A stretch of 63,130 nt of DNA, the filler included, from Reclinomonas americana ATCC 50394 (taxonomy: Eukaryota), in the NCBI GenBank assembly GCA_048213135.1. It is 5 parts of 3 records of this genome, joined end to end, with 100 filler letters (N's around TTAATTAATTAA, not from the genome) between each part and the next. Parts side by side here need not be neighbours in the genome. Positions count along the whole stretch, not along the records: positions 32,762 to 59,969 come from PS015265.1; 4 more parts are not named here. The stretch is one strand, 5' to 3'. Under the pieces are notes generated by a model. That model was not told the origin of the DNA. It searched no databases and worked only from the letters and a program-made list of their open reading frames with translations. A program made the translations under genes and the position numbers. Positions 16,433 through 50,185 of this stretch are shown piece by piece. Position 1 is the stretch's first letter. Every line of letters starts with the position of its first letter.

Positions 16433-17058
16433 TTACAACGCAAGCGCCACCGCCAGCAGAGCGGCAATGGACATCAGCACCACAGTCCACAGCGACGACG
16501 TCGCCGCGAAACCGGCACCACCAACCGTCGATAGCCGCAGACTGGCCGACGGGATCGACTGGCCAAACGAGTTGATGGCGCGCACGTTCACCACGTACGG
16601 CGTGCCAGGCTGCAGGTTCGACTGAGTGAACGTGTAGTTGGCGCGCGACGACGACGTCGAGTCGGTGGCGTTCTTGTAGCCAACAAGCACATTGCCGCCG
16701 TTTTCAGGCACCGTCTGAATCACGTACGTCGTAATCGGTGCCAGACCAGTGTACGCAGGCGTTGAGAAGCTGATGCTCATCGAAGTGTACGTGGTCGAAC
16801 CTTGAGTCGGAGCCGACGGCGGCGCGGGCTGAGCAGTCTGCGACAGCGCACCGTGAGTCGGCGTGCCAACGTTGTTGTCCACTGCGCCGTGTGAGCCCTG
16901 CCCGAGGCCCACTGCATTGCCACCGATCAGCACCATGCGGTAGCGCGACGACGGCTTGATGGTCTGGAACAGCTGCACGCAAGTGCCGGCAATGGCCGGG
17001 TTGGTGCCGCTGCCGAGCACAGCAGTGTTCATGCCCAGGCCGTCAGCAGCGGCCGGGN
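16433..17058 (-). CDS. Fibronectin type III surface protein, C-terminal part, with GPI-signal-like hydrophobic tail
   Basis: FN3 pattern SISFSTP...PITTYVI...NLQPGTPYVVNVRAINSFGQS followed by LWTVVLMSIAALLAVALAL-stop; 5' end cut by the gap. Confidence 0.8.
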
Positions 17059-17101
17059 NNNNNNNNNNNNNNNNNNNNNNNNNNNNNNNNNNNNNNNNNN
17101 N

Positions 17102-17113
17102 TTAATTAATTAA
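17102..17113. other. Artificial join linker TTAATTAATTAA within N-run (also 32706-32717, 60014-60025, 61713-61724)
   Basis: Identical 12-mer with stops in all six frames, centred in N-padding at four sites. Confidence 0.95.
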
Positions 17114-17831
17114 NNNNNNNNNNNNNNNNNNNNNNNNNNNNNNNNNNNNNNNNNNNNTCCTCCTTCCTCCTCCTCCTCCTCCTCCTCCTCCTCCTCCTCC
17201 TCCTCCTCCTCCTCCTCCTCCTCCTCCTCCTTGTTCCTCCTTCCCACTCTCAATCTCTCCAGCACTCTTTGACAACCGGTTTGATCGTACAAGAAAACCT
17301 GATCGTTCAATTCCCGTTGGCAAGCCTCTCTCTTTGCGCTGTCACGCTCTCACTCCCTCTGTCCTCCTCCTCCACCTGTTCCTCTTTCTCCTCCTGTTCC
17401 TCCCCCTCTCCTCCTCCAGACACCCTGTTGCTGTCTGATTATCATTCAGGAAGACCTGTTCATTCAGATTCTACCACTGTCTGTTTGCTTGCAAGGCCCT
17501 GTCCCTGTCTCTTATCACTCGTAACTGCCTCTCTCCTCCCCGCTCCCGGCCCCTCCTCCGCCCTCCTCATCCTTTCCTCCTCCCTCTCCAGCTCTTGCAT
17601 GATCACCCCGATTTCCGACAACTGGCTGTTCATTCTTGTCCCTTTGGCAAGCCTCTCTGCTTGCACTCTCTCTTGCGCTCTCAAGCTCCCTGTCCCTCAA
17701 ACACTCACTCCCGCACACTCCGACCTTCATTTTTGGACAACTATTCCTTTTTATCGCATTCGCGTCACACTCTCATCGCCTTCACACAAATCGGACTTCA
17801 TCCACCTTGTTTTTCTGTGTCGCGTTGAGCC

Positions 17832-23473: not shown

Positions 23474-26051
23474 ATGCTCCGTCTCACAGTAAGTCATCTA
23501 CACACGCTCACACACTCCTGCAACACATTCAAAGTGTTGTGCAGAAGTCGACATGTGCACCATCTCTCACTCTTTCTCTTTGCCTCCCTCTCTCAGACAC
23601 TTGCACAGCGCACGTTCGCTGTGGTGAGTCGCTCCTCGCCGTCACTGCACAGCGCGTCGACATCGACCGGCGTGTCGCGCGCGTACCCGATTATCGATCA
23701 CTCGTATGATGCGATTGTGGTGGGCGCGGGAGGTGCTGGATTGCGTGCGGCAAGTTGAGTGTGGAAGAGAGAGGGNNNNNNNNNNNNNNNNNNNNNNNNN
23801 NNNNNNNNNNNNNNNNNNNNNNNNNNNNNNNNNNNNNNNNNNNNNNNNNNNNNNNNNNNNNNNNNNNNNNNNNNNNNNNNNNNNNNNNNNNNNNNNNNNN
23901 NNNNNNNNNNNNNNNNNNNNNNNNNNNNNNNNNNNNNNNNNNNNNNNNNNNNNNNNNNNNNNNNNNNNNNNNNNNNNNNNNNNNNNNNNNNNNNNNNNNN
24001 NNNNNNNNNNNNNNNNNNNNNNNNNNNNNNNNNNNNNNNNNNNNNNNNNNNNNNNNNNNNNNNNNNNNNNNNNNNNNNNNNNNNNNNNNNNNNNNNNNNN
24101 NNNNNNNNNNNNNNNNNNNNNNNNNNNNNNNNNNNNNNNNNNNNNNNNNNNNNNNNNNNNNNNNNNNNNNNNNNNNNNNNNNNNNNNNNNNNNNNNNNNN
24201 NNNNNNNNNNNNNNNNNNNNNNNNNNNNNNNNNNNNNNNNNNNNNNNNNNNNNNNNNNNNNNNNNNNNNNNNNNNNNNNNNNNNNNNNNNNNNNNNNNNN
24301 NNNNNNNNNNNNNNNNNNNNNNNNNNNNNNNNNNNNNNNNNNNNNNNNNNNNNNNNNNNNNNNNNNNNNNNNNNNNNNNNNNNNNNNNNNNNNNNNNNNN
24401 NNNNNNNNNNNNNNNNNNNNNNNNNNNNNNNNNNNNNNNNNNNNNNNNNNNNNNNNNNNNNNNNNNNNNNNNNNNNNNNNNNNNNNNNNNNNNNNNNNNN
24501 NNNNNNNNNNNNNNNNNNNNNNNNNNNNNNNNNNNNNNNNNNNNNNNNNNNNNNNNNNNNNNNNNNNNNNNNNNNNNNNNNNNNNNNNNNNNNNNNNNNN
24601 NNNNNNNNNNNNNNNNNNNNNNNNNNNNNNNNNNNNNNNNNNNNNNNNNNNNNNNNNGAGAGAGAGAGTAGAGAGAGAGAGAGAGAGAGGGAGGAGGGAG
24701 AGTGGGAATGTTTGTGAATTTTTGTGAGGTGTTGGCGGCGCGGCGGAGAGATGCGATTATCTCCTTGGAGAGATGGGATAGTGAGGGTTAGGCGCGCGCT
24801 TTATCCGTTGCATACATGCTTGCTGTGCACGCAGAGGCACATACTCACTGCTCTCTCACTCACTAATGCACGGCCTGTGATATTCTCCTTGGAGTGGTCC
24901 ACAACTCTCTATGTCGTCTGCTTGTGCTGCGCACAGGAGACACACATGCAGTCGCACGTACTCTCTTTCTCTCTCCCCCTGTCTCTCTCTGTCTCTCTCT
25001 CTGACGCACACGCTGATTGTGATTATCTCCTTCAAGTGTTTTCCAAGAGATAAGAGTCGGAAAGAAGCAGCCCGCTTGTCTTCTACATGCATGTAGCGTA
25101 ATACACACGTATTGTGTTGTGTAGCGCCTTTGTTTTCTCTGCCCATATCGGAATAGCCGCACCCTCTCTCGCACAAGTTTCTCTGTTCACCGCGTTGATT
25201 GTCATCTTTGCCTTTCTCCTTCTGAAGCACCTCCTGCATTCGTTGAGGCACCTTACGTTCTTCGCTGAGCCCTGTTCACGGTGACACGTCAAAACACTCG
25301 GAGTTCCATCCGCATTCGCCTTATGTTCCTCTCATCTCACCCCCTCCCTTCCCCCCTTCACCCTTCCCACTTTTCCCCCTTCCCCCTTCCCCCTTCCCCC
25401 TCTCACCCCCCTTCCCCCCTTAGCCGGTCTCGCCGAAGCCGGCTACTCATGCGCCGCCATCACCAAGCTCTTCCCGACACGCTCGCACACGGTCGCCGCG
25501 CAGGGTGGCATCAACGCCGCCCTCGGCAACATGAGCAAGGACAAGTGGCAGTGGCACGCCTACGACACGGTCAAGGGCAGCGACTGGCTCGGCGATCAGG
25601 ACGCCATTCAGTACATGTGCCGCGAGGCACCACAGACGGTGATTGAGCTGGAGCACATGGGAGTGCCGTTCTCGCGTACCGAGGAGGGCAAGATCTACCA
25701 GCGTGCTTTTGGTGGTCAGAGTCTGGAGTTTGGAAAGGGTGCGTGGAGAGGGCAAGGGGTGGGAGAAGGGGAAGTAGTCTCTCTCTCGGGGTTGTCGTGT
25801 CTCGGGTTCTCGTTCTGTTTGTCTCTGTATTTTCTTTCATGATACCTATGCGCGTGTCTCTCTTTCCATCTCTCGGTTTCTCCATTCTCTTTGTCTCTGT
25901 GTTTTTACTTCCGCGACTCTTATGTGCGTGTCTTTCTTTCCGTGTCTTTGTTTCTTTCTCTTCTTGTCTCTCTCTCTCTCTCTCTCTCAGTTTCTTTCTT
26001 CTGCGACACTTCTGTGCGTGTCTCTCTTCTGTGTCTCGGTTTGTTTTCTCT

Positions 26052-26083
<32 letters not shown>

Positions 26084-39727: not shown

Positions 39728-42700
39728 AGAGAGAGAGAGAAGAAGAGAAGGAAGGGGAGAGAGCTGAGAGAAGAGAGACAAGTTCAATGAGAGAATGCGA
39801 GTTTGTGAGAGAATGCAGTGAGCAAGTGTGTGAGAGTGTAAGAGCATGTAGTCACTCACTCTCTCACAGCACACGCTCTCACATTCTCTTCTGTGTATGT
39901 GTGCAAGAGCTCTCTCTCTCTCCTCTGTAAGAGAGAGAGAGAGCAAGTGCGCTCTCTCGTATGCACACTCATTTGCAACAGTGTGTGTGTGTGTGTTTGT
40001 GTGTGAGTATGTGCATGCAGTCACTCACTGTCTCACACTTGCACGCTTTCTCTTGTGTGCAGAGCGAGAGAGAATGTGAGACTGTGAGACTGTGAGAGAG
40101 AACAAACAAAGAAAGAGCATTCAGTCACTTGTTTCACGCTCTCTGTCACTTTCTCTTGTGTGCAAGTGTGTGCATGAGTGGGCATGAGTGATAGAGAGAA
40201 TACAGAGATTCTGTGTCTGTGTGTGCATGCAACAGTGTGACACTCTCTCCCACACACTCACTGTCTTTCTCTCCTTGTGTCTGTGGCAAAGTGTGACATG
40301 TCCACCCTCACTCTCTCTTTTTTCCGATGTTTTCTTTGCCCTTATTTTCATTCTTGTTTTTTCTTTTGCAGGCAACTTTGTGATTGATTTGCGTGTGCTT
40401 GCCGAGGCCGATTTGATTCCGAATCCCGACGGATGTTTCTTCAAGGTTTGTGTGTGTTTTTCTTGCAAGTCATCGCTCTCTCTTTGATCGTTGAGAGTGC
40501 ACTCCTTTGATGTTCCCCTTGCTCTTCCCTCTTGTCGTCGCCTCCCTCCGCCATTTTTCTCTCTCGCTCTTCGCCCTTATCTCTTGCCCTTGTCTCTCGC
40601 CCTTGTCTCTCACTCTTTGTCATTTCTCTTTGTCTTCCCCTTGTCTTCCCTTGTCTCTCACTCTTGTCTCTCGCCCATCCTTTTGCGCTTGTCTCTCGCT
40701 CTTGTCTCTCGCCCTTGTCTCTCGCCCTTGTCTCTCGCGCTTGTCCCTCGCGCTTGTCCCTCGCGCTTGTCTCTCGCGCTTGTCTCTCGCGCTTGTCTCT
40801 CGCCGTTGTCTCTCGCCCTTGTCTTGCACCCTTGTCGTGCACCCTTGTCTCTCGTCCTTGTCTCTCACTCTTTGTCTCTCGCCCTTGTCTCTCGCCCTTG
40901 TCTCTCGCCCTTGTCTCTCGCCCTTGTCTCTCGCCCTTGTCTCTCGCCCTTGTCTTCGCGCCTGTCTCGTCTCTCACTCTTGTCTCTCGCTCTTGTCTAT
41001 TGCCCTTCTCTCGCACCCTTATCTCTCTCTCGTCTCTCGACCATGTCTCCCTTTTCTTGTCGTCCACTCTTGCTTTCCCCCATTGCTTTCCCCCATTGCT
41101 TTNNNNNNNNNNNNNNNNNNNNNNNNNNNNNNNNNNNNNNNNNNNNNNNNNNNNNNNNNNNNNNNNNNNNNNNNNNNNNNNNNNNNNNNNNNNNNNNNNN
41201 NNNNNNNNNNNNNNNNNNNNNNNNNNNNNNNNNNNNNNNNNNNNNNNNNNNNNNNNNNNNNNNNNNNNNNNNNNNNNNNNNNNNNNNNNNNNNNNNNNNN
41301 NNNNNNNNNNNNNNNNNNNNNNNNNNNNNNNNNNNNNNNNNNNNNNNNNNNNNNNNNNNNNNNNNNNNNNNNNNNNNNNNNNNNNNNNNNNNNNNNNNNN
41401 NNNNNNNNNNNNNNNNNNNNNNNNNNNNNNNNNNNNNNNNNNNNNNNNNNNNNNNNNNNNNNNNNNNNNNNNNNNNNNNNNNNNNNNNNNNNNNNNNNNN
41501 NNNNNNNNNNNNNNNNNNNNNNNNNNNNNNNNNNNNNNNNNNNNNNNNNNNNNNNNNNNNNNNNNNNNNNNNNNNNNNNNNNNNNNNNNNNNNNNNNNNN
41601 NNNNNNNNNNNNNNNNNNNNNNNNNNNNNNNNNNNNNNNNNNNNNNNNNNNNNNNNNNNNNNNNNNNNNNNNNNNNNNNNNNNNNNNNNNNNNNNNNNNN
41701 NNNNNNNNNNNNNNNNNNNNNNNNNNNNNNNNNNNNNNNNNNNNNNNNNNNNNNNNNNNNNNNNNNNNNNNNNNNNNNNNNNNNNNNNNNNNNNNNNNNN
41801 NNNNNNNNNNNNNNNNNNNNNNNNNNNNNNNNNNNNNNNNNNNNNNNNNNNNNNNNNNNNNNNNNNNNNNNNNNNNNNNNNNNNNNNNNNNNNNNNNNNN
41901 NNNNNNNNNNNNNNNNNNNNNNNNNNNNNNNNNNNNNNNNNNNNNNNNNNNNNNNNNNNNNNCCCCCATTGCTCTCCCCCATTGCTCTCCCCCATTGCTC
42001 TCCCCCATTGCTCTCCCCCATTGCTCTCCCCCATTGCTCTCCCCCATTGCTCTTCCCCTCTCCCCCTTCTGCCTTCCCCCTTCCCCCTTCTCATTCCACC
42101 CTTCTCACCCCTTCTCCCTTCCCTCATCTCCCCCCTCCTCACCGCCCCTTCTCCACTTAGCCCACGTTGAACCACTTCGCCTCTCTCGGCTACGACGCCT
42201 GGAGCTCCGTGCGCCACCGCCTGCAGCGCCTCTTCTCCGCCGACGAGCCGGCACTGCGCGACGAGGGCGGCTTGCAGTCGACAGTGAGTGTCACCTACTT
42301 CTCACCACGCTCCTCCTTTGCGCTCATGCCTTTTCTCGTCATCAGTGCATGTACGAGATGGGCTCGGTGGAGATGCTGCTGCCGGTGGAGATTGGCGACT
42401 ACACCGATTTCTACGCCAGCAAGGAGCACGCCACCAACGTGGGCACGATGTTCCGAGGCGCCGCCAACGCCCTCATGCCCAACTGGTTGGTTACGGATGC
42501 ACGCTGATGATCACCAGCCTTTGTCCTCACTCTCCTTTCTGGCAGGACCTCTCTCCCGGTCGGCTACCACGGCCGCTCCAGCTCGGTGGTCGTGTCGGGC
42601 ACCGGCCTGCACCGCCCGCACGGCCAGCTGAAGCCGGTGGACGAGGAGCCGACGCAATTTGGCCCGAGTCGCCTGCTTGATTTTGAGTTGGAAATGGCCA

Positions 42701-43982
42701 CCATCATCGGGCCGGGCAACGCGCTCGGCTCGCCCATCAAGTCGGCCGACGCGCGGAATCACGTGTTTGGCCTGGTGCTGATGAACGACTGGAGCGGTGC
42801 GTGACGTGCACTCTCACTTTTTGCTCTGCCCGCCGTGCTCACCCTTTTTGTCGTACGTAGCTCGCGACATTCAAAAGTGGGAGTACGTGCCACTCGGCCC
42901 GTTTGGCGGCAAGAACTTCGGCACCACCATCAGCCCGTGGATTGTGACCCTGGACGCGTTGGAGCCGTTCCGTGTGGCGGGCCCCGTGCAGGATCCGGAG
43001 CCGCTCGAGTATCTGCGCGAGTCGGAGCCGTCGACGTACGACATTAAGTTGTCGGTGGCGATTCAGGGCGCCAAGATGGACGCGCCGCACTGCGTGTGCC
43101 ACTCCAATCTGCGGTATTTGTACTGGAGTGTGTTCCAGCAGGTGGTGCACCACACGGTGACGGTGAGTTGGGTGATGTTGGAGAGAGAGGGGAAATTGAT
43201 TGTAACTGGTGGATGTGTGTGTGTCGGCTAGGGTTGCAACTTGCGTTCGGGTGATTTGCTGGGCACGGGTACGATCTCAGGACCGGTGAGTGGAGGTGGG
43301 AGGGGGAAGAGAATGGGAGGGGGTGGAAGAAGAGGAAGAGAGCGCAGAAATGCAGAGAGTTGATAGTGTGGGTAGCGCGATTCCGCTTCACCCTCTGCTT
43401 CCTCTCTCTCTTTCTCTCATTCTCTTTCTGTTTTTTCTTTTCCCTCGCTCTCGATTCTTATCCTGTTTCCATGTTTCTCTCCTTGCTTCCTCTTTCTTCT
43501 CTCCATGTCCTTGTTGATGTGGTTCTGTCTCTCCCACCACATGCACTTTGTCTTTGTCATTTTTTCTGTCTTTGTGATTCTGCTGCGTTGTACTTTCCTT
43601 CTTTTGTCCTTCCCCTTTTCCTTTTCCTCCCCTCCTTTTCCTTCCCCTTTCCCTTCCCCCTCACCTCCTTCTCTTTTCCTTCCCCTTCTCTTTCCCTTTT
43701 CCTTCCCTCTTCAGACCGCCGAGGAATACGGCTCCATGCTCGAACTCAGCTGGCGCGGCACCAAACCCCTCCCCTTCCCCAACGGCGAGGAGCGCAAGTT
43801 CCTGCAGGTGCTCCTCACCTTCCACCCCCTTTGCCCTTTACCTTCCCTTCCCTTCGCCACTCATCACCCGTGCACAGGACGGCGACACCGTGTTCATCAA
43901 CGGCTTCTGCCAAGGCGAAGGCTACCGCGTCGGTTTCGGACCCTGCATCGGCCAGGTGCTGCCTGCGGTGCCCTACTTTTGA
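39566..43982 (+). CDS. FAH: Fumarylacetoacetase
   Basis: [86 protein letters not shown]. Confidence 0.97.
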
Positions 43983-45297: not shown

Positions 45298-48200
45298 TCA
45301 CTCTGATGGTCCAGCAGGTCCTGCTCCACCCACTGCCGCCTCGCTCAAGCGCCTCAGCTCGTCGAGCACATACGCTGCCGACACGCGTGTTGCTTGTGGC
45401 CTCTACATCACACACGCGCGATGAGCAGCCACCTCTCCGAACAACACGATCTACTTCATCAGAACGCAACCCAGCACTGCCGAATCAGATTGCGAACGTC
45501 CTCCGGCACGGCAGCCCGCGCACTCTCATCGTCAAGATCGGCGGGTGGAACGCCGGCTTTCATGAGATCTCCGATTTGCATCAACGCCACTCCATTGTAT
45601 GGCTCCTGACGAGTGGCGATGAACCAGAGCAGTGAACCAAGTCCATACACATCCGCCCTCTCATCATACTGCGAGTGGTGAACAAAGCATGTGTGAACGC
45701 CGCTCTCATCGTGCAAAGCGAGAGAAGAAAATGTCATCTCCGCACCTCCTGATCCAGCATGGCCTCGGGCGCAGCATACGCTGCCGTGCCGTGATTCGAC
45801 TGCATCTTGCCAAGAGTGCCGTGAATCCTGGCCTCACCAAAGTCGCACACCTTTGCCACGAGTCGGTCCTCGCTGATGAGGATGTCTGAGGGCATGCAGT
45901 GGGAACAGAGTCAGCGATGAAAGGAAGTATGGTGATTGATCTGGAAGATGTTCCACTGCCCTCTCTCTCACATCCACTCTCTTTCATCAACGTGCCATAA
46001 CACCACTCGACGAGAGTGCGCACAACCGCTGATGCCACTTGCACGAGCACATTGACCTCACACGCCTGGTTGTCTCTCCCTCCCTCTCACCTTCTCTTGC
46101 GTCAGCATCTCGTAAACCTCTTCTCTTGTAGTCTCGCTCTCTCCCATCAGCCACTCCAAACGAAACTCTGTGGCCTGAGATCACGATGCACCACTCGACG
46201 AGAGTGCGCACCACCGCTGATGCCACTTGCACGAGCAGACTGTCCTTACTCGCCTAGTTGTCTCTCCCTCGTTCTCACAATAACTCACTTTGCATCAACA
46301 TCTCATAATCCTCGTCTCTTGTCGTCTCATATTCTCGCATAACCCTCTCCAAAACGAAACACTGTGGCCTGAGATCACGATGCACCACTCGTCGCGAGTG
46401 CATGTGCACCACCGCCGACGCCACTTTCACGAGCAGACTGTCCTTACTCGCCTAGTTGTCTCTCCCTCCCTCTCATCTTCTCTTGCATCAACATCTCATA
46501 ATCCTCTTCTCTAGCAGTCTTGCTCTCTCCCATTGCGCTCTCCAAGACGCAACTCTGCGGCTTGAGATCACGATGCACCACTCGACGCGAGTGCATGTGC
46601 ACCACTGCCGACGCCACTTGCACGAGCAGACTGAGCAGATGTGGAGTCGTCATATGCTCGTCCTTCACCAAGTCATGCAGCGTCTCGGCAATGCCCTCCT
46701 CTTCATCCTCACGACCGACATATTCAAGAACAAGACCGAGACCACTCGGGTCGTCGTTGCACACGGCCATCAGTTTCACAATGTGTGGGTGACTGCGTGC
46801 AGGCACATGAGCGACAACGTCAGCATGCAAGTGCAAGGAGCACGAAAGCACGCAACTCGAGTTGCATCAGCAGAGAGTGCTCGTTCTCGAAGCACGCATG
46901 AACACTTTTCCAGTCCGTCGATTGTGCATCTCGAGCTTGCCTCCTGACCAAGTATCGCTTGTACGCCACGGTCTGCGACATACCGCCAAGGCGGAGAGCG
47001 GCATGGAAAACAGCATTTTGACCTGCAGTGGCAAACGGAGGAGATGAGTTTGTGCTCATTCACACAGAGATGCAGGCACGCGGAGGTGATTACACCAATA
47101 GCAAGTTGTCTTGAAGGCGTCAAGTCCGAGAACGACACAACAGGTGCGCGAATGGCGAATCGCGCTGCTCTCTCCGTCACCAGCTCAGCCGTCACATTGA
47201 TGCGACACACATCTGTGCTCAGAGAATGAGTAGGAGAGAATGAAGACACCAAGTGGCGATAAGCTGTCGCAACTCTCGTATGCTTGGAACAGCAGACGGA
47301 TACTCTCGTGCTGTCCGCCGGGGAACAGCGTATGGAGTGAGTCGCGAACCAGCCGCATGACGCTCACGTACTCTGCGTCTTCGAGTGCAGAGAGACGGGC
47401 CAGGTGAGACACACGATGGCGCACATCTCGCAAGTTCTCTACGGCTCGAATCTGCAAAGCAGGCTGGCCTTGAGAACACTCGTCAGTAATGATGGCACAA
47501 GCAGAGAGCGTACCTTGGCAGGGTCAGTGAGTAGTCGCACAGCCACACGGTCTTCGTTTGTAACAGGATCGAGGCGGACGAGGCTCTCCAGCAGATCCTC
47601 ATCACGGCAAGCGACGACAGGAACGAATGTTGTGTACAGCAGCAGCGTGCTCAGCAGCGACACATCCATGCCCGATGTCACTCCACTCTGCTTGAACTCT
47701 CGAATTGTCTCGTAGTTGGAGGGGAATAATTCGACGGAGCGCATACGAATGTTGCCGCGCTTGTCCAGAGACATTCGGCAGTATCTGTGAGGCAGAATGA
47801 GCGCATGAGACACAACACATTCAAGACTGTCCCTCCTCAGCACCTCGATGATGGAGCTGGAAGACAAAGTTGCTCAATGTCGAATTCGGCATGGAAGAAG
47901 CCAGCGATGAGTTGTTGCAGGAGAGACCCAAGAGCCAGGGGAATAATCTCATGCACGACTTCGGTAAGCATCAAGATGGGACGGCGGTCACTGTGCAACC
48001 AAGAGTGAGGTGCCTCACGGGCGAGAGCAAAACTGGGTGAATGAGTCATGATTTACCTGAGAAAGTCCATGTTGAAGAGAGCGCTCAGTTGGCCTTCCAT
48101 GTTGCGCACCCTTTGCCGTTCAGAGGTGAGATTGGTCTGCAGCTCCACGACTTGTTGCTGGCTCTGAGCTTGAGCTTGCTGCAGTTCATCGACTCGATGT

Positions 48201-49603
48201 TGCTGTTCAGCTAAGGTGTGACGATGCTCAGCATTGGCTCGCTGCAGCTGAGTGACAATGTCTTCGTGTTCTCGTCGCTGTCGATCCCATTCGTGCTGCT
48301 GTTGCTGTCGCTCCTCCTGCTTCTCGGCGTTGATATGCTGCAGCTCGGCATTGTCTCGTTGCAGCTGAGTGACAATGTCGTCGAACTCTCGTCGCTGTCG
48401 ATCCCATTCTCGCTGCTGTTGCTGTCGCTCCTGCTGCGATGTGGCGAGATCGCGCTGGAGCTGGGCGATGAGTGCGTCCTTGTCGGTGACGTCGTCGACC
48501 GCCTGCGCAGAGCAGAACAAGAGAGAGGGAGAGAGAGAGTGAGAGAGAGAGAGGAGGGAGAGAGGTGGGAGTCAGAGAACATGCACGATGAGACACAGAC
48601 ATGCGCAAGCGAGACGACACGGTCTCTCACCTGGCGTGATGGCGATGTATTATCTGCAAGACGAAAAGTAAGCGAAGCAAACAACGAGGAGAGTGTGAGA
48701 AAGGAGAAAAGCACACATCAACCATCTGTACAAGACGACACAAAGATCACACCTGCTGCTCGTGGTGGTGGTGGTGGTGGTGAAGAGGTAAGGGATATTT
48801 GTGGCTGCCGCTGTTGTGGACGTGCTGGCTCTGCGTGTTGTTGTGGGGTGAACACAAACAGAGAAAGATGAGCGTGTGCAACACGAAAATGAGATCTCAC
48901 CTGCTGGTGGCTGTGGTGGTGGAGGCGGAGAGGAAGGTTGTGGTTGTTGTTGGCGTGGTGGAGGTGCTCGTTGCTCCGTAGCGAGGCGGTCGAGCAACTC
49001 GGCAACTTGTTGCTTGCCATTATCGCGTGCGAACTGAGCCGCTGTCCTGCCATACTTGTCGACCATGGGAATGAGGTCGGGAAAGCGCGTGGCGAGGAGT
49101 CGCACGACGTCTTCGTGGCCATTCACAGCAGCGCAGTGCAGCGCAGTACACTGGTATGCTTTGGTGACCGCCCGCACCATCTCCGGCGGGCATCGTCGCT
49201 CATCGGCAAGCAACCGCTCCACCACTCGCAGATGCCCGCTGTCGGCAGCCCGCATCAGTGGCGTGTGGCCATTGTCGGTGACCATTTGTGCGAGTTCTGG
49301 ACCGACGCCACTCTTATCCCACAGATACTCCAACACAGAGAGATGGCCATAGCAAGCGGCATAATAAAATGCCGATCCACCGCCAAGCGTCTCCTCTCTC
49401 TTCAGCAGTGTCTGTGCGCCCTCACGCGCCACCAACTCGCGCAGTGCCTTCACATCGCCTTCCCACGCCATCGCATATGCTTTCAGCCTCCTCCGTTGTT
49501 GCCTGCCCAACGAGCAACAATTGTCAGAGAGAGTCAGCGAGGAGACGAGAAAGCCAGAAACAAACACACACACATACCTGTCACTGCCCTGTGCTGCACC
49601 CAT
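45298..49603 (-). CDS. Ankyrin repeat - Pro-rich - coiled coil - HEPN - protein kinase (TKL-like)
   Basis: Ankyrin repeats (GHTPLMRAA, TALHCAA); Gln-rich coiled coil; HEPN-like MDVSLLSTLLL and ENLRDVRHRVSH (47404-47421); kinase VAYK, FENE, LDHPHIV, HRDLKPQN, KVCDFG, YAAPE, DVYGLG, QCW. All exons can be joined in frame by GT-AG introns. Confidence 0.8.
45985..46445 (-). repeat. Three degenerate duplicates of the kinase HRD-exon 3' end within an intron
   Basis: VASAVV...RRVVHRDL-like copies at about 46440, 46240 and 46050 with substitutions, indels and altered donors. Confidence 0.8.
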
Positions 49604-49790
49604 CTCTGTCTGTCTGTCTGTCTGTCTGTGTGTGCGTGCTTTCGTGTGGCAACTCGCGATTCATGACACGCTCAGGACAACTCTCAGTCCGTCGTCACTG
49701 AGTGAGTGAGCGAGACACAGACGCACACTCGCGTAAGAGAGAGTACCTCTCTGTCTGCGCTCTCTCTATCTCTCTGCACAACAACGAAGA

Positions 49791-49853
49791 ATGGAGAGAT
49801 ACATCAAGAGCAAGATCCTTCTCGGCGAGGGAACTTATGGATATGTGTACAGG
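49791..49853 (+). pseudogene. Orphan CDK-like first exon (copy 1)
   Basis: MERYIKSKILLGEGTYGYVYR then GTACTG donor; resembles the CDK1/2 N-terminus; no downstream CDK exons found. Confidence 0.7.
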
Positions 49854-50185
49854 GTACTGTGTCACTCACACTCTCAAACACACACACTCACTCACGCACA
49901 TACACACACAGAGAGAGGGAGAGAGTGATTCAGAGACAACTCTCATGCATTCTGTGATCTCTCAATCAATCAGCGCAAGAGTCACTCTTTCTCTCTTTCT
50001 CTTTCTCTCACACACACACTCATTCCCTCACTGAATCCAACTCACTTGCTGACTTTCGCACATCTCCCATCTTTTTCGTCTCGCATTTCCACACCCCGTT
50101 CGTCTCTCACACTGATGATGCACTCGACATTCTCAATGCTGAGCTCTCACCCCCTCCCTCTCCTTTTTTGCAAGCTTGCTTTCAC

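Follow-up and report, generated by a model that had tools for sequence, protein, structure and literature searches.

Does the gene at positions 45298 to 49603 of a 63,130-nucleotide (nt) stretch of DNA from Reclinomonas americana ATCC 50394 (NCBI GenBank assembly GCA_048213135.1) encode a protein in which a kinase is coupled to a ribonuclease (RNase) of the HEPN type, in a manner comparable to RNase L and IRE1? The whole stretch, which is termed the window in the following, consists of five parts joined end to end, and the gene lies within the part derived from PS015265.1 (32,762-59,969). An initial annotation had read the locus as ankyrin repeats, a coiled coil, a HEPN domain and a kinase, i.e., as an RNase L-like domain set in a different order. 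Our analysis leads to a graded answer. With a probability of roughly 0.38, we favor an interpretation in which the locus is one gene for a protein that dimerizes via its coiled coil, carries a very divergent DZIP3-type HEPN domain beside the kinase and parallels RNase L and IRE1 in function and not as a member of their family. Taken together, the architecture exceeds chance and the Rx4H motif of the middle domain by itself does not; the HEPN identity of that domain is a lead and not established.

In agreement with the intact spliced open reading frame (ORF) that had been proposed, the gene model starts with ATG at 49603 and ends with TGA at 45298, exactly on the limits given for the locus, and all 14 exons (Table 1) are open. 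The spliced sequence comprises 2760 nt and 919 amino acids (aa). Twelve of the 13 introns are between 59 and 128 nt in length, the exception being intron 11 with 668 nt, and short GT..AG introns are a general feature of the window DNA, which has a G+C content of 50.8% and contains 5413 N in 18 runs. Within exon 8, a second possible donor, GTTGCG, is found at 47273 (exon end 47274), the use of which would result in an intron of 61 nt instead of 37 nt and in a protein of 911 aa. Since introns 10, 11 and 13 likewise use GTTGCG as donor, the version with the 61-nt intron is somewhat likelier than that with the 37-nt intron. Exons 6, 7 and 8, on which the HEPN question depends, look coding in the proposed frames because their in-frame codon scores (-0.05, +0.015 and +0.010 bits per codon, respectively), calculated with a codon-usage table trained on window stretches with Pfam support, exceed those of the other frames (-0.44 to -0.82); introns scored between -0.09 and -1.23. 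The poor coding scores of exons 3 and 4 are due to low complexity.

The middle domain comprises residues 392-600, i.e., about 200 aa encoded by exons 6 to 8, and shows the hydrophobic periodicity of amphipathic helices, with a power of 0.77 at 3.6 residues. Both sequence blocks on which the HEPN assignment had originally been based, MDVSLLSTLLL and LRDVRHRVSH, are present, starting at residues 480 and 538, respectively, and the second of these contains Rx4H (R542 to H547) in the form R-H-x3-H. MDVSLLSTLLL presumably resembles an N-terminal motif of DZIP3-type HEPN domains. Exon 8 was also compared with a protein atlas on the basis of language-model features and attained a recognition value of 2337 in this search, with 2300 being reached by 91 of 100 proteins of known families. 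Its neighbors include DUF4559 at 0.89, with 183 of 256 features in common, and a cluster at 0.88 in which 10% of the members carry HEPN_DZIP3 and with which 185 features are in common, followed by a second HEPN_DZIP3 cluster (family present on 55% of the members) at 0.79 and by HEPN_Swt1 (92% of the members) at 0.77. Atlas matches below 0.9 are to be read as leads only, and the mark for common features is set at 170.

DUF4559 is probably the family of CXorf38. CXorf38 has been classed as Swt1-like HEPN in the excerpts used here of the survey by Anantharaman et al. (2013; PMC3710099). In these same excerpts, the residue that follows the conserved arginine of the HEPN motif is described as mostly N, D or H, and the end of helix 3 is given as the place of the motif (PMC3710099). 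The initial concern that the protein features RH instead of the usual RN is removed by this description, because it makes RH a normal form of the motif. R542-H-R-V-S-H547 agrees with Rx4-6H with a polar residue after the arginine, an agreement to which we attach weak weight. In a single-sequence AlphaFold2 (AF2) model of exon 8 with a mean predicted local distance difference test (pLDDT) value of 70.8, three helices are predicted (exon residues 2-20, 25-42 and 49-64), and the motif is placed in the first helix, within its C-terminal half, four to nine residues before the helix end, with a loop and two helices after it. HEPN domains have an all-alpha core of four helices, and all structure models obtained here cover single exons of the domain; when exons 6, 7 and 8 were modeled as three separate chains, the assembly score of 0.01 gave no answer either way. 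Altogether, we see slightly less than an even chance that the middle domain has the HEPN fold.

In further searches, the spliced middle domain yielded nothing against 234 proteins with either blastp or phmmer, and none of 19 pattern matches for exon 8 in viral contigs was confirmed. One metagenome locus retrieved with exon 7 (1 of 598 pattern matches) was rejected since it encodes a bacterial-type amidohydrolase (Amidohydro_3, E 4.7e-106) and has a single 8-residue pattern in common with the exon, a chance match.

The portions of the protein on both sides of the middle domain can be assigned with less reservation, and for these the initial reading is supported. Ankyrin repeats in exon 2 were recognized by the Pfam model Ank_2 with E 6.9e-22 (78.3 bits vs. 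a cut-off of 27.3), well above the gathering score, as well as by Ank with E 6.9e-19. A search of this exon among longer proteins resulted in 113 matches, all of them generic ankyrin proteins with identities of at most 47%, and neither an ortholog nor the protein itself was among them. Heptad periodicity confirms the coiled coil: for residues 244-391, the power of hydrophobic periodicity is 0.86 at 3.5 residues vs. 0.02 at 3.6, and Pfam coiled-coil rows for this region are weak only. From its sequence, the MGAAQGS start of the protein looks like an N-myristoylation signal.

For the kinase domain, the Pfam profile Pkinase matched exon 11 (E 4.3e-12) and exon 12 (E 2.2e-6), while PK_Tyr_Ser-Thr matched exon 13 (E 0.0023), and exon 11 also found kinases in the PDB (best E 3.6e-6). 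All of the motifs initially listed were located, namely VAYK at residue 656 (with K659), the alpha-C glutamate E685, HRDLKPQN at 766, DFG at 787 and APE at 811. The glycine-rich loop (G-loop), inside which the junction of exons 9 and 10 falls, reads LAIGQN where GEGGQG is present in the paralogs described below, such that no more than one of the three canonical GxGxxG glycine positions is kept in an alignment made by eye. Judged by these residues, the kinase is atypical and probably catalytic rather than a classical pseudokinase. There is no domain behind the kinase: its last conserved block is separated from the stop by about 30 residues, and exon 14 matches no Pfam family.

Intron 11 deserves a separate description. 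Most of it is occupied by a tandem repeat of a 193-nt unit (46001-46633; 3.3 copies with 83% match) that already begins within exon 11. In degenerate form, each copy reproduces the part of exon 11 that codes for HRD at its end, together with the beginning of the intron; an HRD-type frame is still open in copy 2, and copy 3 carries a frameshift. The repeat is either genuine duplication debris or an assembly artefact.

Further information on the origin of the gene is provided by three neighboring tandem paralogs on the same strand, identified by tblastn and blastn. In DNA comparisons (blastn), identity between the gene and its paralogs amounts to 78-89% and covers solely positions 48227 to 49887, which comprise the 5' flank, exon 1, the ankyrin exon, the linker exons 3 and 4 and the initial part of exon 5, the coiled-coil exon. 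On the protein level, the ankyrin exon is 76-79% identical to its counterparts, and the start of paralog 2, the sole paralog checked for an MG start, reads MGATQGK (at 53201). In the paralogs, the coiled coil leads directly into a kinase with a GEGGQG G-loop and a juxta-kinase motif that is presumably RLK/Pelle-like. This kinase is about 40% identical to that of the target gene over an alignable catalytic-loop stretch of 45 residues. Past the middle of exon 5, the target sequence is unique and comprises the rest of the coiled coil, the orphan helical domain and a divergent kinase of the Ser/Thr type; the middle domain is absent from the three paralogs and from elsewhere in the window (tblastn, best row with E 0.18). 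Because the similarity stops inside exon 5 and the paralogs lack the middle domain, the gene appears to be a chimera in which the ankyrin/coiled-coil head of the family and a tail consisting of helical domain and kinase were joined in the coiled-coil exon. The paralog similarity ends at 48227, at the edge of the 117-nt repeat (48226-48437), and this coincidence suggests recombination within the repeat.

The 5' flank common to the paralog units (similarity to 49887) also harbors a short open exon on the plus strand (49792-49854) that starts with ATG, encodes a glycine loop of the kinase type, GEGTYG, and is bordered by GT at its end. Further exons downstream of it were not identified, and nearby plus-strand ORFs are without a Pfam family.

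According to our favored interpretation, recombination in the repetitive coiled-coil exon would have joined an ankyrin/coiled-coil head to a tail composed of the helical domain plus the kinase, giving rise to a dimeric protein of about 915 aa with a role in signaling or defence. Its MG start would be myristoylated and attach the protein to a membrane, the ankyrin repeats would bind a partner or ligand and the coiled coil would form a parallel dimer. The helical domain would represent a very divergent DZIP3-type HEPN domain, the R542-H-x3-H547 sites of which could meet in the dimer and form a site for RNA cleavage or RNA binding. This site might be controlled by the kinase through nucleotide binding or autophosphorylation, or might itself control the kinase. 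As regards the single elements, a mechanism like that of RNase L appears rather unlikely to us. The same holds for the most far-reaching version of the interpretation, according to which a deep-branching protist would have independently built a kinase-coupled non-KEN HEPN RNase, with a DZIP3-like HEPN domain between coiled coil and kinase under an ankyrin sensor, convergent with RNase L and IRE1 and assembled via exon-level recombination in tandem ankyrin kinases; this we regard as improbable in its entirety.

A considerable body of results weighs against the interpretation as a HEPN protein and in large part speaks for an alternative in which the middle domain serves as a helical spacer or regulatory domain specific to the lineage, lacks HEPN ancestry or RNase activity and contains R-H-x3-H by chance. 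The protein would then be just another member of the local family of ankyrin/coiled-coil kinases. Scanned singly, exons 6, 7 and 8 found no match among Pfam families at a threshold as lenient as E<=10, HEPN_DZIP3 (PF18738) included, nor among the models of PADLOC or NCBIfam, and PHROGs returned weak rows only (best E 0.046, function unknown). Exons 7 and 8 found nothing relevant among PDB sequences, and exon 7 gave no hit with phmmer among 1,835,955,588 representatives at E<=0.001 and none among 247 candidates at E<=0.01 in a word-index search of longer proteins. In the atlas, exon 7 yielded no usable match and stayed unrecognized (recognition 1872, below 2300); the top places for exon 8 are held by two unnamed viral clusters at 0.91, every HEPN row lies below 0.9 and agreement is limited to three of the ten best family-bearing matches. 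Models do not help either, as AF2 gave an unusable result for exon 7 alone (mean pLDDT 38.7) and as Foldseek and VIA-align retrieved generic helical matches only with the exon 8 fragment. In shuffles of the 209-aa middle region, Rx4H occurs in 45% of cases, for which reason this motif by itself was dropped as HEPN evidence, and R[NDH]x3H in 6.2%; a match to Ex3[KR], the typical form of the acidic residue that HEPN domains carry upstream in helix 2, was seen in ESLVR at residue 507, 35 residues before R542, and was likewise discarded since 83% of shuffles hold such a motif. Furthermore, three paralogs work without a domain of this kind. On the other hand, a mere spacer does not readily account for the fact that the named exon 8 neighbors in the atlas belong to two or three HEPN families and to no other named fold (DUF4559 being the third only if it is the CXorf38 family), for the 183-185 features in common with those clusters, which exceed the mark of 170, or for the canonical polar residue after the arginine in a motif that is predicted to lie near a helix end. 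The HEPN assignment has the atlas lead for exon 8 and the R-H-x3-H form in its favor and no match on the level of profile, sequence or fold in the exon searches, and we regard the spacer alternative as nearly as likely as the favored interpretation.

The locus may also not constitute one functional gene but two genes split after exon 5, the first for ankyrin repeats and coiled coil and the second, starting at an ATG in exon 6, for helical domain and kinase, or a recent chimeric pseudogene resulting from unequal crossing-over. This would be in line with several properties of the region around exon 5, where read-through of the donor immediately meets TAA (AG/GTAA), where an in-frame Met follows seven codons into exon 6 and inside which the paralog similarity breaks. 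It would also be in line with the 2.3 extra degenerate copies of the exon 11 HRD end in intron 11 and with the loss of G-loop glycines; the nearly glycine-less loop and the repeat debris together could indicate a recently rearranged, decaying gene, and the exon-exon joins are predicted from genomic sequence, two further points that weaken the HEPN interpretation. Against a split or decayed gene, the gap between exons 5 and 6 is 66 nt long, a typical size, is bounded by GT..AG and keeps the frame, 14 of 14 exons are open, codon usage in exons 6-8 is frame-specific and the catalytic motifs are intact. Moreover, the DNA identity of the common part to the paralogs is only about 80%, and the rearrangement is therefore not very recent. 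We consider it unlikely that the locus is anything other than one functional gene. Finally, the helical domain that precedes the kinase could be a membrane-disrupting bundle of the MLKL/HeLo type, which would make the protein a necroptosis-type executioner and not a nuclease. Layout is all that speaks for this idea, i.e., a helical bundle before a kinase with a weakened adenosine triphosphate (ATP) site together with a probable membrane anchor; sequence, profile and atlas searches gave no signal for MLKL or HeLo families, and the catalytic loop and DFG are intact, so that we judge it highly improbable.

The favored interpretation as a kinase-coupled, divergent DZIP3-type HEPN protein invites comparison with several known systems. 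RNase L consists of ankyrin repeats, a pseudokinase and a KEN RNase, IRE1 consists of a kinase and KEN, and dimerization is the switch in both. Ankyrin repeats at the N-terminus and a kinase fold are common to RNase L and the Reclinomonas protein, as would be a HEPN module beside the kinase if the lead holds, and dimerization as the switch is a possible parallel to RNase L and IRE1 that we infer by analogy. The ankyrin repeats of RNase L bind 2',5'-oligoadenylate (2-5A), and those of the target are known here from sequence alone. In RNase L and IRE1 the KEN RNase follows the kinase, whereas in the target the candidate HEPN domain precedes it and nothing comes after. Because no KEN domain follows the kinase, the gene is, on the evidence of its predicted domain order, not a member of the RNase L/IRE1 family. 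It differs from both in its additional long coiled coil and probable myristoyl anchor, and in combining an intact catalytic loop with the loss of the G-loop glycines. The candidate domain resembles HEPN of the DZIP3/CXorf38/Swt1 type and not KEN as present in RNase L and IRE1. KEN itself is classed as HEPN in the excerpted survey (PMC3710099).

The named neighbors of exon 8 lead to HEPN of the DZIP3/hRUL138-like kind (PF18738), found as N-terminal effector domain of animal NLR-like proteins, since two of the neighboring clusters bear PF18738. In pearl oyster, according to excerpts of the respective study, Rx4-6H is present in 194 of 202 proteins with DZIP3-type HEPN, 131 of which have Rx4H, the most frequent form, and N usually follows R (PMC9646362). 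The target differs in having H at this place, and the Pfam model does not match exon 6, 7 or 8. Fusions of DZIP3-type HEPN to ankyrin repeats as well as an expansion in the protist Capsaspora are recorded in Table 1 of the 2013 survey, and no kinase appears among the DZIP3-type HEPN partners tabulated there, as far as the excerpts go (PMC3710099). A description of DZIP3-type HEPN fused to a protein kinase was not found in the literature library searched.

A likeness of another kind exists with MLKL, which is composed of a four-helix bundle, a brace and a pseudokinase. By analogy, both proteins may be seen as having a helical domain immediately N-terminal to a kinase fold whose nucleotide-binding loop is impaired. 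There is no detectable similarity between them, though, and the Reclinomonas protein differs in having ankyrin repeats and a coiled coil upstream and in retaining HRD and DFG.

To our knowledge, a kinase fold that gates a HEPN RNase is well known solely from RNase L and IRE1. If the middle domain is HEPN, the Reclinomonas protein would represent a second, independent solution to the coupling of kinase and HEPN, in which the HEPN family is another one, the order is reversed and dimerization is brought about by a coiled coil. A kinase would then join the partners tabulated for DZIP3-type HEPN in 2013, and the pairing of kinase and HEPN could be a recurrent design instead of a single invention. 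If the middle domain is not HEPN, the gene would be an ordinary lineage-specific variant of the ankyrin kinase family. The locus also appears to display gene birth by recombination in the repetitive coiled-coil exon of a tandem family.

Table 1. Features of the gene and of the window, in window coordinates.
Feature	Position	Strand	Description
Whole gene	45298..49603	minus	14 exons, all introns GT..AG, phases consistent
Exon 1	49578..49603	minus	begins MGAAQGS
Exon 2	48901..49502	minus	ankyrin repeats (Pfam), aa about 20-185, then start of proline-rich linker
Exons 3 and 4	48830-48753, 48653-48631	minus	proline-rich linker
Exon 5	48057..48502	minus	coiled coil, aa 244-391, heptad periodicity
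117-nt unit, 1.8 copies	48226-48437		tandem repeat within coiled-coil exon 5
Exon 6	47844..47990	minus	first part of middle domain, aa 392-440
Exon 7	47514..47784	minus	aa 441-531; MDVSLLSTLLL at aa 480, ESLVR at aa 507
Exon 8	47250..47451 (may end 47274)	minus	aa 532-598; R542-H-R-V-S-H547
Exons 9 and 10	47212-47096, 47022-46857	minus	linker and N-terminal lobe of kinase
Exon 11	46554..46792	minus	kinase hinge to catalytic loop, HRDLKPQ; N of loop completed across splice junction
Intron 11	45886..46553	minus	668 nt, mostly repeat copies
Exons 12-14	45885-45746, 45668-45471, 45402-45298	minus	DFG, APE, C-terminal lobe of kinase, stop
Three tandem paralogs	~50189-53300, 53809-56797, 57422-59970	minus	ankyrin repeats, coiled coil, different Ser/Thr kinase; tblastn and blastn
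GBP-like GTPase fragment	681-1373	plus	N-terminal GTPase domain of guanylate-binding protein (GBP), E 1.6e-9
Succinate dehydrogenase flavoprotein	25285-31183		Pfam ORF scan
Uninterrupted ORF of 648 aa	37104-39047	plus	TPR_10/TPR_12 repeats (NPHP3-like) in last 200 residues
Fumarylacetoacetase	42161-43228		Pfam ORF scan

The remaining entries of Table 1 stem from a Pfam scan that covered 273 of the 296 stop-to-stop ORFs with 90 aa or more in the window, the other 23 of which overlap the target gene. For the C-domain of the succinate dehydrogenase flavoprotein, the best identity to other proteins was 63%, a value uninformative as to lineage. Within the ORF at 37104-39047, the first roughly 450 residues, which precede the TPR repeats, match no family, and this TPR portion might serve as sensor arm in an NLR-like protein. 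Together, the GBP fragment, the TPR gene and the ankyrin kinases lend the window an immunity-like flavor, with the joined parts not necessarily being neighbors in the genome. Pairs of N runs (44 N, 12 bases, 44 N) at 17058-17157, 32662-32761, 59970-60069 and 61669-61768 represent the filler between these parts.

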